Sequence record: MT884006.2
Strand: one strand, 5' to 3'
DNA length: 64,000 bases
Source of the DNA: Escherichia phage vb_EcoM_bov9_1
In this document: positions 22,981-31,534 of the stretch, piece by piece
Layout: the number at the start of each line of letters is the position of its first letter
How positions within the stretch are numbered: position 1 is the stretch's first letter
Position numbers and translations under genes: made by a program
The notes under the pieces: generated by a model
What the model was told of the DNA's origin: nothing
Databases searched by the model: none
The model's input: only the letters and a program-made list of their open reading frames with translations

Positions 22981-23034
22981 TCCTCATGTTATGTCAGTAA
23001 GACTACTATAACACAACATAAGGAACTTGTAAAC
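22981..23034 (-). promoter_or_regulatory. Early promoter cassette (GTTTACA -35, 17-nt spacer, TATAGT -10, GAGGA RBS), copy A
   Basis: sigma70-like elements on minus strand; 51/54 nt identical to copy at 37956-38009. Confidence 0.55.
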
Positions 23035-25091
23035 TACATTTTGAACTTTTTAGACATTCCGTTGATGTTAACCAAAGAAGCTAAGATTTGAGAAACTTCG
23101 TTTTCCTCTTCTTTTGATTCTTCTACAAGGAATTGATTAAATCCAGCCATTGGACGAACTTCACCAGTTTCCATCAGATGGTCGCCATCATATACTGATT
23201 CTTCTAATTGTTCAGAAGGAGGAACGATTGTACCTTCGATTAGATACTTGTTATAAGCAGTTTCTTTCATCATGTACGTACTTACTTTATTAATCTTCAG
23301 TAAAATTCCACGCGGCAAAATAACTTCAGCTTCGGATGGAAATCCTGATAAATGACCTGGAACGATAACTTTAACTCGTTCAGCTCCTTTAATTACCATA
23401 CCTACATTAGTTTCAGCGTCTTCATTCGCATATGTAGAATGACTACCCATATGCATTAAATCTTCAGCATCAACTGAACCTTCTCCTTCACCAGAAAATA
23501 CTGCTCCGGAATCATCTAAGGCCATATAATTTTTACCATATTCACCGAAGATATTTGGCTTGAGTGAAGTAGATACAAAGTTCTTGAAATAGAACATTTT
23601 ATTTTCTATATTATGACGTAAAGTTTTAAAGGTAACTTCTTGCCCACGATAAAGAGTAGTTCCTGGAGGAAGAACTGAACCTTTAGAAAATGCAGAATCC
23701 AGCGTCTCAATATGTTTAATAGCTCGTTCCATATATTCTTCACGGGTAGAATCAGGTTTACCTAGAAGGAACGAGTTCATTTCAACATATGAATCTGCGC
23801 AATAATCTTCAATTACATCAGACTCAGCCTGAGTTAATCCTTTTGGAGTTACTTCAGTGCTTGCATATTCATATGCCTGAGCAGCAGATTCATCAATTAA
23901 TTTATAAATTCCATTCATTACAAATTGAATAATAGCTGTCTTTTCATCTGGTGTAGCTTTAGAACCTTTAACTAAATCATTGACAATTTTCTTAATAACA
24001 TCAAAGCTATTAGAAATATTAATGTCAGCAAGATCGCTTAAAATTTTATCAGTTTTATAATCAAAGAATTCTTTATTCTTTAAATATTCTTGAGAACCTT
24101 GATATGTTATATCGCTCTGCAGCTTGATAGATGGATCGCGTAAACGTGCATGGGCCAATGCAATATGATTTCGGAAGCTTTCGAGTTCATAATCACTAGA
24201 TTTAAAACGAGAAGCACTTCTCATACCACCGATAGCTCCTTTGCTAAAGTTTGAACCAACCTGAATAACGCCAGAGTTCATTGGTCCTTCTGCTTTATAT
24301 ACCGGAACTTTAGATTCAAACTCTTGATATTTCTTAGCAGCGAAGCTATCACCCTGAAGTGAAGCATCAACAGTAGAATATTGAGCTTGTGCTGCTAATC
24401 GACGACTAATTTTAGTTTTCTGAATAACAGCTTGATCCGTGCGCTTATCATTTTCTAAAGCAATAGAAGCAGCAACAGCAACAGCTTTAGGAACAGCATT
24501 ACCTGTTTTAACGTCTACATAAACATCACCAACCTTTGATTCAACTTTTGTGAATAACTCGGTTGAAATAGGAGGTACACCTGGAATGTCTTCTAAATTG
24601 GCATTTTTACGGTAAACCATAATATATGCGTACTTTTTATCATAATCCCAGATTTCCTTTAAAAGAACATATCGACCTGCTCCTTTAGTACGTACTAAAC
24701 GGTCAGCAATAACTTGCATTTGCCGAGCAGCGCCATTTGTTTTACTTTTTAGTACGCGGAATAAGCATGCATCAATTTTATACTGTTTCATTGTTTGAAG
24801 AGCAGTATCAAAAACAGCATTAATGACGCCAATTGGATTTCCACCCAAGTTTTTAAGCTTAACTAATGATAGTTTCTCATTAACACCTATCATTACGATA
24901 TGCATCATTTTGTCGCCTGGCTTAACGTTTTTATTCGTATCACCGCCAGAGGTGTATGTACAAAATCTAAATCCAGGAAGCACGCTTTCTTCACCTGCTT
25001 GAATAGCAAAAATTTGAGGTATTTTATGCTTAGGATTTAAGTTAACAACCGGCGCCGAAGCGCCGTCAAATAATTCTGTAATAAGTTCCAT
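23034..25091 (-). CDS. Alt-family mono-ADP-ribosyltransferase paralog (685 aa)
   Basis: N-terminal about 230 aa near-identical to adjacent Alt; C-terminal ART signature R (LYRGQ), STS (FVSTSL), ExE (SEAEVILPRG). Confidence 0.8.
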   Translation of the reverse strand: MELITELFDGASAPVVNLNPKHKIPQIFAIQAGEESVLPGFRFCTYTSGGDTNKNVKPGDKMMHIVMIGVNEKLSLVKLKNLGGNPIGVINAVFDTALQTMKQYKIDACLFRVLKSKTNGAARQMQVIADRLVRTKGAGRYVLLKEIWDYDKKYAYIMVYRKNANLEDIPGVPPISTELFTKVESKVGDVYVDVKTGNAVPKAVAVAASIALENDKRTDQAVIQKTKISRRLAAQAQYSTVDASLQGDSFAAKKYQEFESKVPVYKAEGPMNSGVIQVGSNFSKGAIGGMRSASRFKSSDYELESFRNHIALAHARLRDPSIKLQSDITYQGSQEYLKNKEFFDYKTDKILSDLADINISNSFDVIKKIVNDLVKGSKATPDEKTAIIQFVMNGIYKLIDESAAQAYEYASTEVTPKGLTQAESDVIEDYCADSYVEMNSFLLGKPDSTREEYMERAIKHIETLDSAFSKGSVLPPGTTLYRGQEVTFKTLRHNIENKMFYFKNFVSTSLKPNIFGEYGKNYMALDDSGAVFSGEGEGSVDAEDLMHMGSHSTYANEDAETNVGMVIKGAERVKVIVPGHLSGFPSEAEVILPRGILLKINKVSTYMMKETAYNKYLIEGTIVPPSEQLEESVYDGDHLMETGEVRPMAGFNQFLVEESKEEENEVSQILASLVNINGMSKKFKM

Positions 25092-27244: not shown

Positions 27245-27430
27245 TTAATAGAGAGCTAAAAGAGTACGATATACTTCAAACTTTGGACCTTTTTCATATG
27301 GATCAAATCTTTCCGTGAATTCATCATATGCTAGTTTATCTGGGAATTCAAGAATAACCTGCGATACCGCAGTGGAAACATCTCCACCTTCTTTTTGAGC
27401 CACGACAATTGTTTCTAAGTAAGCTTTCAT
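27245..27430 (-). CDS. Hypothetical protein, 61 aa
   Basis: ATGA overlap with stop of DNA ligase gene; followed by terminator hairpin. Confidence 0.5.
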   Translation of the reverse strand: MKAYLETIVVAQKEGGDVSTAVSQVILEFPDKLAYDEFTERFDPYEKGPKFEVYRTLLALY

Positions 27431-28890
27431 AAACCAGTTACCTCATGAAAATCGCCAAATACATCTTCGAACGTATTAGCTTTAGTTTTATCTTCACGTA
27501 AACGAATTGCAATTGGAAGAAATAGCTTAACGTAATCAGTACGTCCATCTAATTTTACCCAGCCGTTGCATTCGCACTCTAGAATTTTTCCAATATAATA
27601 ATTTTGGTTTTCCATAATGCGAGTACGGTCAAGTTCATGCGATTTTACGCCGGCTTTATCTTTTAAGCCTGAACCAGCATTTACTTTAATTTTTCCACAC
27701 TCTGATTCAAGAATGAAACCACCTGCTTTAGTAGGGTCTTTACGGTGAGGATAAATTCCTACAATTTTTAAATCAACATCAATTACTTCTTTAAATTTAT
27801 AAAGATTTTTTGAACGAGCATTTTCCCATAATCCATCGATATTTTTGAGAATAATACCTTCAAGACCTTGGTCAATATACTTTTTGTAAATTACCTTAGC
27901 TTCATCTAGGTTATTTACTACTTGGTTTTCAATTAAAATTACTTTATCATAGCCTGATGTCATTTGTTCTAGTTTAGAAAAACGTACATCATATTTTAAA
28001 CGAAACGCCGGAAGACCGTATATTTCTACCAACGGAACATAATCCCAGACCTGAAACTTCATGCATTGAGCTTCTTTTTCTGAAATAGTTCCCTTTAAAG
28101 ATTTATTAGCGATTCCATTAGAAGTAGTACGTGATTCAGCTACTTCGGCGAATTCTTTAGCTTTACTAATTTCAGGATAAGCATCAAAAAGAAAATCTAG
28201 GCCTTCTGGCTCCTTTTCAACTTGCTCATGGTATACCAATTCGCCATCAATTAACACACCTTCTGGATGAATCTGGCGAGCTTCTGCAGTCATTTTGATT
28301 AACTCTTCTTTGAGAAGATCTAATCCTAGATATTCATTACCAGCTCGTGATAAAAGACGAACATCATCTAATTCATCACCTCTGACTTCAGCAAAGCACC
28401 GAGCTCCATCAGCTTTTAATTGGGCAAAGGCTGGAAATTTAATATTCTTGCTAATGCCTTTTTCATCATAAGAACTTGCCAGCATTTGAGGTTGTTCAGG
28501 AATTAAACCTGGCCAAACTTTGTTTGCAATAGATACTGATGCACCGCATTCAAGGTCTCGCATCATCACCCGACGCAAAACTTCAACATCATCTTTTTTA
28601 CCGTCAGTAATATATCCAGTTAATTCCTCAATTGCCGCATTTCCAGTCAATTTCCGAGTAGCTAATGTGAATTCAATGAAGTCAAGCATATCGGTAAGAG
28701 TCAACATTCCAAAACTCTGGGTAGCAATACCAGGTTTAGGCCATTTCTTGATATAATACTGTAACCCACGAGAATAAGTCAGACGATATACTCGTTTGAG
28801 CAATTCATTATCTTTATTCTTTTCAAGAATTGCTTGCTTTTGCTTAGTTGAACCAATAGATGCTATTTCATTCAGAATTTTAAGAATCAT
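27427..28890 (-). CDS. 30: ATP-dependent DNA ligase gp30 (487 aa)
   Basis: 487 aa; adenylation motif KADGAR; sequence MILKILNEIASIGSTKQKQ... recognised as T4 DNA ligase. Confidence 0.95.
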   Translation of the reverse strand: MILKILNEIASIGSTKQKQAILEKNKDNELLKRVYRLTYSRGLQYYIKKWPKPGIATQSFGMLTLTDMLDFIEFTLATRKLTGNAAIEELTGYITDGKKDDVEVLRRVMMRDLECGASVSIANKVWPGLIPEQPQMLASSYDEKGISKNIKFPAFAQLKADGARCFAEVRGDELDDVRLLSRAGNEYLGLDLLKEELIKMTAEARQIHPEGVLIDGELVYHEQVEKEPEGLDFLFDAYPEISKAKEFAEVAESRTTSNGIANKSLKGTISEKEAQCMKFQVWDYVPLVEIYGLPAFRLKYDVRFSKLEQMTSGYDKVILIENQVVNNLDEAKVIYKKYIDQGLEGIILKNIDGLWENARSKNLYKFKEVIDVDLKIVGIYPHRKDPTKAGGFILESECGKIKVNAGSGLKDKAGVKSHELDRTRIMENQNYYIGKILECECNGWVKLDGRTDYVKLFLPIAIRLREDKTKANTFEDVFGDFHEVTGL

Positions 28891-29156
28891 TGTTCATCCT
28901 TTAGAGTTTGGTTTACAGCTCTATTATAAATCAATTCATCATTAAGCTCAGTCAAAGACCTGTGGTACGTGGTTCTAACTTTATTTCCTTGCATCCAGTG
29001 CTTGACGTAAATGAAACCTTGCTCTACACATTTTTTAAAAATTCGTTCGTCTTTTTGAGCTCGGAATTCTGGATTGCATCTAAAAAATTGATTTACGTGA
29101 CCGTAATCACGTGTAGTATTACCTTCATTTTCATAAATAGTGTAAACGACAAACAT
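28887..29156 (-). CDS. Hypothetical protein (T4 30.1 position)
   Basis: 89 aa; overlaps ligase start by 4 nt. Confidence 0.55.
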   Translation of the reverse strand: MFVVYTIYENEGNTTRDYGHVNQFFRCNPEFRAQKDERIFKKCVEQGFIYVKHWMQGNKVRTTYHRSLTELNDELIYNRAVNQTLKDEQ

Positions 29157-29992
29157 TAGAATGCTCCTTGGAAAATATTATCACCACTAGTAGGTCTATT
29201 ATACAAATACTCTATGCCACCGGGTTTAATATAGTTCCATGTCTGAAACGGATGCGTCTGATATGGATGATATAGATTATAAGGATTAAATCCAGGAGTT
29301 CTCCAGGTAGTGTTCCAAGGAAAAGAATCATTTTTAATCATCTTTTCAATTACATCTTTTATAGCTTTTTCACTATCAAAACTTTCTTTATTTTCATTCG
29401 ATGGAAAAAGCTTATTCTCTACATCATTCCATGTATAAACTCGCTGTGCAGTTTTTGGAATACTGTCACGCTCCCCTCGAGCCATCCAATAAACAGGAAC
29501 ATTTAATATTTCACTCGCATGATCGCAGTGGTGAGCGAGATCGTCAATATAACAAATTACGTTATATTTCTCTTTTGCCTTTTTGAACAACTCTTCTTTT
29601 GAAGAATCATGACCACACATCAATACTTCTGAGAAGGCACCAGGAAAAAGAGCATTCAAATTAAATTGACGATTCAGCAGAGCGTCAATAGAATCACCCA
29701 GTGCTGTAACAGCTACAAAATTATAATCTTCTTTTAATTTGTTAATTACACACAGGGCATCTTTATATGGAGACAAATAGCGAATAAAATCTGAACGATT
29801 ATACTTTTCGATTAATTTAACACCAAGTTCTTCATCGCAATTAAAGAGCTTACCAGGAGAAATAAATTTTTCGTCCTGAATCATTTTTAAAATATGTTCC
29901 AACGGAAGATTATATTTTTGGGCAAAATAAGGAAGGCCCGATTGCCAGCTTAAACACACCCCGTCAATATCAGTCAAAATAGTAGGCTTCAT
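29156..29992 (-). CDS. HAD-superfamily-like phosphatase/nucleotidase candidate (278 aa)
   Basis: N-terminal DIDGV (HAD motif I DxDGx), later VAVTA, K-rich segment and YIDD (motif IV-like); C-terminal about 100 aa Trp/Tyr/Pro-rich extension. Confidence 0.55.
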   Translation of the reverse strand: MKPTILTDIDGVCLSWQSGLPYFAQKYNLPLEHILKMIQDEKFISPGKLFNCDEELGVKLIEKYNRSDFIRYLSPYKDALCVINKLKEDYNFVAVTALGDSIDALLNRQFNLNALFPGAFSEVLMCGHDSSKEELFKKAKEKYNVICYIDDLAHHCDHASEILNVPVYWMARGERDSIPKTAQRVYTWNDVENKLFPSNENKESFDSEKAIKDVIEKMIKNDSFPWNTTWRTPGFNPYNLYHPYQTHPFQTWNYIKPGGIEYLYNRPTSGDNIFQGAF

Positions 29993-30453
29993 AGAGAGTC
30001 TCTTAATAGGTTTAACACATCAATAAATTCAGCTTCGGTTAGTATTGTATCATCTTTTGTTAGACCACTAGCCATGCTATGCTTCAAAATTTTTCCTTTA
30101 GAGGCTTGTAAGGCATCACGAAACCCCTTGTTTTGAATCGCTGCTTCAAAATATGCATTTGTATACAACTCTTTCCATGCTGCAGAGTATCTTGAAAAGG
30201 GAATTCCAAGCCAGAAAAGCGTCCCACGGTCCGCAGCTCTTGCATAAGCTCTTCCACTTTGCTGGGCGGCCAAGCCGGAGAGCCCAAATATACGTTTTTG
30301 TTGTTCAACATTTTTCACCTTGCATCCTTGGAGGAATCCTTCAAGACCTCCGAATTGAATACCATCCATGACGAAAGGCCATTGGGCGAAATTACTTAAT
30401 GCACACGATGGCCATCTAAAATTGCTTCTAATCTCTAACTCAGACATTTTCAA
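29989..30453 (-). CDS. NADAR/YbiA-like (DUF1768) domain protein (154 aa)
   Basis: Signature ALSNFAQWPFVMDGIQFGGLEGFLQGCK resembles the YbiA/NADAR core (LSNF...P...DG...E..FQ..K) as I recall it. Confidence 0.6.
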   Translation of the reverse strand: MKMSELEIRSNFRWPSCALSNFAQWPFVMDGIQFGGLEGFLQGCKVKNVEQQKRIFGLSGLAAQQSGRAYARAADRGTLFWLGIPFSRYSAAWKELYTNAYFEAAIQNKGFRDALQASKGKILKHSMASGLTKDDTILTEAEFIDVLNLLRDSL

Positions 30454-30646
30454 TACTTATAATTTCAACATCAGCCCAATGACCATAGCAAGGAAGACGA
30501 AATTCAACTGGCCAGTTAGGGTCCTTTTCTAATATAATAGACTCAACTTGTGGTTCTTCATGTTCATCAGTATATGGATTTTTATCTGTTACTTTATATG
30601 TGACCTTAATGTACTGAATTCCAAAAATCTTATTAATTATATTCAT
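30440..30646 (-). CDS. Hypothetical protein, 68 aa (30.x cluster)
   Basis: ORF in tightly overlapping operon; synteny only. Confidence 0.45.
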   Translation of the reverse strand: MNIINKIFGIQYIKVTYKVTDKNPYTDEHEEPQVESIILEKDPNWPVEFRLPCYGHWADVEIISIENV

Positions 30647-30840
30647 ACTAATTCCTTTAATCCGTAAATAGGAGACAATTCATCACCCATACGAAGGTCT
30701 TCATTTCCATCTACCCAGGAAACAATATAAGCCTCTTTTATTTGAACACCACTCCATTTAAATGGAGGTAGAACCTTAGAAATTAATCCAGGTATACCAA
30801 CTCCCTTTAATTCAACAGTTTGACCTAAAAAGAATTTCAT
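30643..30840 (-). CDS. Hypothetical protein, 65 aa (30.x cluster)
   Basis: ORF with 4-nt overlap to neighbours. Confidence 0.45.
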   Translation of the reverse strand: MKFFLGQTVELKGVGIPGLISKVLPPFKWSGVQIKEAYIVSWVDGNEDLRMGDELSPIYGLKELV

Positions 30841-31127
30841 TAGAACCTCATCTGAAAACCATGCGATTTAACATTACCGCCGCCAATATCAGAAATATTA
30901 ATTTCACGCGCAATTGAAGGGTCAATGTCAATTTCACGATTAAGTTTAGCGATAGCTAAAGTATCACGCCCATTTACTGTACGGAATTCTAAAGGACAAA
31001 CCACATCAACGTAATTTTTAATCGATTCACTGGTAAGCTGCAAATGAGCAGGAAGGTCTTTAGGTGCCTTTGAGAAAACCACTTCACAAAAATTTTTGCG
31101 GGTGTCAAAATAAGTAGTCATAAACAT
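30840..31127 (-). CDS. Hypothetical protein, 95 aa (30.x cluster)
   Basis: ORF with GAGG RBS; preceded by GC hairpin. Confidence 0.5.
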   Translation of the reverse strand: MFMTTYFDTRKNFCEVVFSKAPKDLPAHLQLTSESIKNYVDVVCPLEFRTVNGRDTLAIAKLNREIDIDPSIAREINISDIGGGNVKSHGFQMRF

Positions 31128-31143
31128 AATATTTTCCTCAGTA

Positions 31144-31159
31144 AGGGGCCGAAGCCCCT
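31144..31159. terminator. Intercistronic GC hairpin (AGGGGC-CGAA-GCCCCT)
   Basis: Between two 30.x ORFs, just upstream of RBS of the downstream gene. Confidence 0.35.
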
Positions 31160-31168
31160 CATTTTATT

Positions 31169-31534
31169 TTAAATATCAAATTCGTTAAGAACTACATCAA
31201 AGATTGCTTCAAGATGCTCAGGTTTAGCTCTGTTACTCAGAATATGACGAATCCAAGTTTTAACCAAAAGCTTGCGATTATCACCATTCCAGCAAGGATG
31301 AGTCCCTAAATCGCGTTGACGAAAATCATCATCTAAAGCGATTTTAAAATTTGAACCTTCCATTGTGATTGAAACCGTGATGCCATTTTCAAATCGCATA
31401 TAAACGTAGTTAGGAGTCATATACTGTTCAATTTCGCATACTGATCCATTTTGATGTTTCCAAAGGCAAATAGTATCAATAGAACCTGCAATACCATTAG
31501 AAACATATTTACGTTCAAAGTTGATGTAGTTCAT
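31169..31534 (-). CDS. Hypothetical protein, 121 aa (30.x cluster)
   Basis: ORF; upstream palindrome/early promoter at 31561-31600. Confidence 0.5.
   Translation of the reverse strand: MNYINFERKYVSNGIAGSIDTICLWKHQNGSVCEIEQYMTPNYVYMRFENGITVSITMEGSNFKIALDDDFRQRDLGTHPCWNGDNRKLLVKTWIRHILSNRAKPEHLEAIFDVVLNEFDI

Follow-up and report, generated by a model that had tools for sequence, protein, structure and literature searches.

Next to the DNA ligase gene of an Escherichia phage, and a few kilobases from two Alt-family ADP-ribosyltransferase genes, lies a short ORF whose product resembles the NADAR/YbiA proteins, and the question raised by this locus is what such a protein does for the phage. The original prediction, which set a putative "eraser" beside the Alt "writers," offered two possible roles, namely, defence against DarT-type toxins that ADP-ribosylate DNA and nucleotide salvage. 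The analysis described here makes it highly probable that the ORF is the ortholog of phage T4 gene 30.3, now called adfN, which encodes a bare NADAR/YbiA core that would restore phage DNA modified by the toxin DarT1.

The window, that is, the entire 64,000-nucleotide stretch of DNA that was analyzed (record MT884006.2, Escherichia phage vb_EcoM_bov9_1), comes from a T4-like phage. The taxonomy line of the source record reads Tequatrovirus nbeco, a species other than T4. Escherichia phage vb_EcoM_bov10K1 (MT884007.2, Tequatrovirus) matches bases 29000-31200 with 100% identity, and at the megablast level these bases are matched by 729 phage records. The genes follow one another as in T4 (alt.-3, the second alt, alt, alt.1, 30, 30.1-30.7, and onward), and three of them are central to the argument:

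29989..30447, minus strand: adfN, ortholog of T4 gene 30.3 (152 aa; predicted phage-type NADAR)
29156..29992, minus strand: ortholog of gene 30.2, HAD-fold phosphatase-like (278 aa)
27427..28890, minus strand: gene 30, ATP-dependent DNA ligase (from the ORF list, the T4 gene order, and the annotation of the source record)

An ORF of 154 aa that opens with a TTG codon and includes the previously quoted peptide ALSNFAQWPFVMDGIQFGGLEGFLQGCK does occupy positions 29989..30453, as originally proposed; its strand, which had been left unstated, is minus, with the stop codon at 29989-29991. The start codon is likely a different one. The ATG at 30447, giving a product of 152 aa (MSELEIRS...), is favored over the TTG at 30453 because it overlaps the stop codon of the upstream gene 30.4 (sequence ATGTCTGA) and because the resulting length agrees with the 152 aa annotated for T4 gene 30.3. 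The reality of the gene is well supported: the product matches the Phage_30_3 profile over its full length (PF08010, positions 1-138 of 138; E = 3.6e-67, 225 bits where the cut-off is 36), is identical to T4 gp30.3 at 144 of 152 residues (95%) without gaps, and is encoded by a sequence that differs from the T4 gene at 40 nucleotides, 28 of them at third codon positions of the adfN frame, which indicates that this frame is under purifying selection. The window holds one copy of adfN.

The T4 annotation also lists 30.3', a +1-frame ORF inside 30.3, which corresponds to window positions 30084-30311 (minus strand). This frame is open in the window, in T4, and in IME281 and is broken by a stop codon in RB69. 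Between the window and T4, 53 of its 75 residues are identical (71%), compared with 70 of 77 (91%) for the overlapping residues of gp30.3. A real second gene is therefore unlikely, and judged from these sequences, 30.3' seems free of constraint and probably does not represent a gene.

Annotation of the region in MT884007.2 differs from the gene model given here. In that record, 30.3 starts at the internal Met27 (125990-126370; 126 aa, named "hypothetical protein"), 26 codons too late, such that the conserved ALSNF motif is cut off. Several neighbors in MT884007.2 carry implausible names, including "glycogen branching enzyme" for a 58-aa product at the position of 30.9 and "tail fibers protein" at both 31.1 and 31.2.

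The DNA ligase gene lies downstream of adfN on the same strand, within a single tightly packed string of genes. Stop and start codons overlap by 1-8 nt at each junction from 30.6 through alt.1, which supports co-transcription and coupled translation. A scan for promoters and terminators between 27 and 33 kb returned 24 sites, compared with 20.6 +/- 4.2 in shuffled sequence, and because this is no excess, the assignment of adfN to the gene 30 (DNA ligase) operon, which we retain with no promoter detected, stands on gene packing and synteny with T4. Given this packing, adfN would be expressed together with the early/middle gene 30 cluster.

The relationship of the adfN product to NADAR proteins is remote and becomes visible through profiles and structure only. 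A search with the NADAR profile PF08719, one of the checks suggested at the outset, gave no match to the adfN product even at E <= 10, and PF08010 was the sole Pfam match. A PDB sequence search with the adfN product alone found nothing, NCBIfam has no entry covering gp30.3, gp30.2, or the two Alt proteins, and the PHROGs matches were to families of "unknown function" only. The PF08719 miss was not taken as a refutation because other profile comparisons and the fold gave positive evidence. PF08719 is matched by 11 of 59 family members (best E = 1.5e-7, 32.3 bits, under the cut-off of 35.1), and a profile of the family retrieves E. coli YbiA (2b3w; E = 0.0064), with the motif LSNF...DG...E...Q..K aligned. 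In an AlphaFold2 model built from a 59-sequence alignment (pLDDT 93.6, pTM 0.89), the adfN product is predicted to adopt the YbiA fold, in which a helical core lies between two small beta-sheets, and a fold search with this model, the second of the suggested checks, confirmed the NADAR fold. The predicted NADAR/YbiA identity is thus supported by profile comparisons, by the predicted structure, and by what has been published on the T4 ortholog.

Three sites bear on whether the window copy is likely to be active:

30319..30342, minus strand: codons 36-43 (EGFLQGCK), including Glu36 and Lys43 (from the alignment to YbiA and from T4 mutants)
30079..30081, minus strand: codon 123, His, which replaces the Glu/Asp of the last strand in phage NADARs
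29992..30036, minus strand: codons 138-152 (EAEFIDVLNLLRDSL), C-terminal helix, intact (helix 138-151 in the model)

Across 60 family members, E36 is invariant and K43 is conserved in at least 90%; both are present in the adfN product. In the family profile alignment, the two residues pair with the E and K of "TSEHYFQAQKF" in E. coli YbiA; the Glu and Lys of the conserved E-x(6)-K helix of the NADAR superfamily are kept in the adfN product. The E36A and K43A mutants of T4 AdfN are impaired and give partial rescue only (PMC11825919). H123, which lies in a strand spanning residues 120-123 of the model, is invariant across the 60 family sequences and is kept as well. A His in the last strand is the mark of phage NADARs (PMC11125620, PMC12945103); the same position holds Glu in YbiA and Asp in the DarT-linked NADARs (PMC11125620). 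The eight substitutions that distinguish the adfN product from T4 gp30.3 (K51R, S64A, A67S, A72Q, I82V, A89P, I120V, and M125I) all lie outside the invariant and near-invariant columns of the 60-sequence alignment.

The C-terminal helix is where the RB69 allele differs. In RB69 (NC_004928 130267-130680), 30.3 is frameshifted and encodes 137 aa, with EAEFIDVLNLLRDSL readable in the +1 frame only, in agreement with the T insertion described for this DarTG1-sensitive phage, through which its product loses the final 15 residues (PMC11825919). The window allele is intact across the frameshift point. T4 AdfN cut at the RB69 position has reduced activity (PMC11825919).

The function of the T4 ortholog has been determined in some detail. 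T4 gp30.3 was renamed AdfN, for anti-DarT factor NADAR (Johannesman et al., Nat Commun 2025, PMC11825919). Mapping with chimeric phages pointed to gene 30.3, and deletion, complementation, catalytic-mutant, and DNA dot-blot experiments showed that T4 adfN is both necessary and sufficient against DarTG1; ectopic adfN(T4) restores plaquing of RB69, and purified AdfN takes ADP-ribose off DarT1-modified DNA (PMC11825919). In vitro, T4 gp30.3 hydrolyzes guanosine-ADPr and leaves thymidine-ADPr intact (Toxins 2024, PMC11125620), and guanine-ADPr in RNA is also a substrate of NADARs (PMC11125620, PMC12945103). The gene is conditionally essential: in the HIDEN-SEQ transposon screen, adfN insertions were lost specifically on DarTG1 hosts (bioRxiv 10.1101/2025.11.20.689424), and adfN is dispensable on K-12 hosts (PMC11825919, bioRxiv 10.1101/2025.11.20.689424). 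The methods of PMC11125620 give the T4 gp30.3 construct as residues 1-208, compared with the 152 aa of the T4 gene; one cluster of homologs is 201 aa long and has an N-terminal extension.

A role against DarT-type toxins, as suggested by the original prediction, has therefore been shown experimentally for a protein 95% identical to the one in the window. Combined with this identity, the retention of E36, K43, H123, and the C-terminal helix leads us to infer strongly that the window copy is an active AdfN with the same role as its T4 counterpart, and by analogy with the in vitro activity of T4 gp30.3, the window protein would hydrolyze guanine-N2-ADP-ribose. Upon infection of a DarTG1 host, DarT1 would attach ADP-ribose to guanine bases of the phage DNA, and this modification would block replication; AdfN would then hydrolyze the guanine-ADP-ribose bond, such that the DNA would be restored and replication could go on. 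AdfN would work as a copy of DarG1, the antitoxin, that the phage carries as an orphan and that does not bind the toxin; a two-hybrid assay of T4 AdfN and DarT1 gave no interaction (PMC11825919).

The two Alt ADP-ribosyltransferases that had been predicted nearby are indeed encoded about 2.8 to 7.4 kb from adfN, on the same strand, and both contain PF03496:

25095..27188, minus strand: Alt proper (697 aa; PF03496; 70% identical to T4 Alt)
23034..25091, minus strand: a second Alt paralog, full-length at 685 aa (PF03496 match with E = 1.8e-20; shares 41-42% identity with Alt)

In the place of the second Alt, T4 has nothing more than alt.-1 and alt.-2, the decayed pieces of a duplicate; the second Alt itself keeps the R / STS / ExE ADP-ribosyltransferase motifs. 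Alt proper is a mosaic when compared with T4 Alt: the two are near-identical over residues 1-250 and over the final ~100 residues, but they have diverged strongly in between, the catalytic domain included, a pattern suggestive of an exchange of domains or of rapid evolution in the catalytic part.

The presence of two PF03496 ORFs on the same strand so close to adfN is the basis for viewing the locus as a writer/eraser pair, in which the adfN product would reverse or limit the marks that the two packaged Alt paralogs (or ModA/ModB) make. Alt modifies arginine in proteins. The substrate demonstrated for T4 gp30.3, however, is guanine-ADPr in DNA (and, for NADARs, in RNA), thymidine-ADPr is left uncleaved, and the only adfN phenotype found is that on DarTG1 hosts, the gene being dispensable on K-12. 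Moreover, proximity to Alt is the usual T4 synteny, and the more remote members of the family are found in unrelated neighborhoods. Such a pairing with Alt is exceedingly improbable, and the link drawn between an Alt writer and a NADAR eraser finds no support, the shown substrate being the guanine-ADPr produced by the host toxin DarT1.

Metagenomic relatives illustrate how these neighborhoods vary. Genes of the gp30.3 family at 36-37% identity occur in metagenomic contigs that are phage-like and large (up to 308 kb), where nearby genes encode NUDIX, Thg1, GGDEF, SprT-like, and phosphoribosyl-pyrophosphate synthetase-like proteins, unlike the T4 ligase cluster. Near the distant gp30.3-family genes in metagenomic phage contigs, no ART was found, and a search within 6 kb of such genes in the large contigs detected no homolog of 30.2, which weakens a functional link between 30.2 and 30.3.

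The immediate neighbor, gp30.2, is indeed HAD-like, as predicted: the product of 29156..29992 has the four HAD motifs and the Rossmann-like HAD fold and resembles 5'(3')-deoxyribonucleotidases. Its start codon overlaps the stop codon of adfN (ATGA). The HAD core ends around residue 195 and is followed by a long helix and then a tail (~220-278) with pLDDT below 60. Because many gp30.2 homologs are just 196-220 aa long, the C-terminal tail (window 29156-29400, minus strand; ~80 residues) appears to be a lineage-specific extension. In all Straboviridae-type phages examined, down to 43-46% identity, 30.2 is adjacent to or near adfN, a proximity that is most simply explained as synteny.

The resemblance of gp30.2 to deoxyribonucleotidases, along with the YbiA-like fold of the adfN product, could be read as a sign of metabolic function. 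The adfN product would then be an N-glycosidase or a salvage or signal-degrading enzyme that acts on riboflavin intermediates, free ADP-ribose derivatives, or NAD-derived immune signals, and it and the HAD phosphatase gp30.2 would make up a short pathway for processing nucleotides. Soluble ADPr derivatives have in fact been proposed as the preferred substrates of phage NADARs (PMC9503650), but this 2022 proposal predates both the demonstration of DNA de-ADP-ribosylation and the DarTG1-specific phenotype. In addition, the last strand of phage NADARs carries His where YbiA has Glu (PMC11125620), and no 30.2 homolog accompanies the gp30.3-family gene in two more distant phage lineages. A metabolic function in place of DNA repair is very improbable, and nucleotide salvage as originally put forward draws no support from any of the evidence; a second, soluble substrate of the adfN product is possible.

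Restoration of DarT1-modified DNA, the reading preferred here, has a complication of its own. T4 AdfN shows no antitoxin action in uninfected E. coli, where it fails to protect from DarT1, and T5 and Bas25 gain hardly any rescue from it; a T-even-specific partner was suggested by the authors (PMC11825919). This dependence of AdfN on T-even infection counts against the preferred reading. Were the partner encoded in the same coupled string of genes, the HAD-fold phosphatase gp30.2 would, from its position, be the best candidate, and it might process ADP-ribose after its release, process a phosphorylated intermediate, or direct AdfN to replicating phage DNA. Such a role for gp30.2 is very unlikely, however: the HIDEN-SEQ text names adfN alone as lost on DarTG1 hosts (bioRxiv 10.1101/2025.11.20.689424), and the adjacency may be plain T4 synteny, being absent in two more distant phage lineages.

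The biology of adfN is already known (2024-2025), and the window gene adds annotation only. This annotation is useful because the public record describes the protein as hypothetical and starts the gene at Met27; the name adfN is applicable. By analogy with T4, the phage is predicted to be resistant to DarTG1, which may be of practical use in picking T4-like phages for DarTG1-carrying hosts. Several database proteins consist of a gp30.3 fragment joined to PF11097, PF06919, PF06019, or PF26911, and others are fragments of 83-126 aa. Such proteins may reflect deletion, fusion, or erroneous gene calling among T4-like phages, and in that case a minority of relatives would carry a disrupted adfN.

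Comparison with known systems places the window gene next to T4 adfN and far from the other NADARs. E. coli YbiA (2b3w) and the Phytophthora nicotianae NADAR (PDB 8bau) are 19-20% identical to the adfN product; YbiA hydrolyzes riboflavin intermediates, is involved in swarming, and does not rescue from DarT1 (PMC11125620, PMC9503650, PMC12945103). DarG1, the NADAR antitoxin of the DarT1-NADAR systems, represented by the Geobacter lovleyi NADAR (PDB 8bat), is 15% identical. It has N-terminal extensions (PMC12945103) and a last-strand Asp, whereas the adfN product has His and no extensions, and T4 AdfN cannot replace DarG1 in uninfected cells (PMC11825919). DarG1 is paired with DarT1, whereas adfN is flanked by 30.4 and 30.2; because no DarT gene adjoins it, adfN is an orphan antitoxin-like gene, as described in the literature. 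Other phage proteins, AdfA, AdfB, and AdfM, have a fold unrelated to that of AdfN. To our knowledge, none of their genes is expected in the window, going by position in the T4 genome. These proteins also counter the DarTG defense family, and AdfM (T4 tk.4) is a macrodomain protein directed against the thymidine-modifying DarTG2 (PMC11825919, bioRxiv 10.1101/2025.11.20.689424). By far the closest counterpart is T4 AdfN itself, which shares with the window protein the length of 152 aa, 95% gap-free identity, E36, K43, H123, the C-terminal helix, and the position between 30.4 and 30.2, and differs in eight conservative or surface-type substitutions and in belonging to another phage species. The window gene thus falls within a family for which the general point has been published, namely, that phages bear orphan copies of a bacterial antitoxin enzyme and use them to undo DNA ADP-ribosylation by DarTG1.
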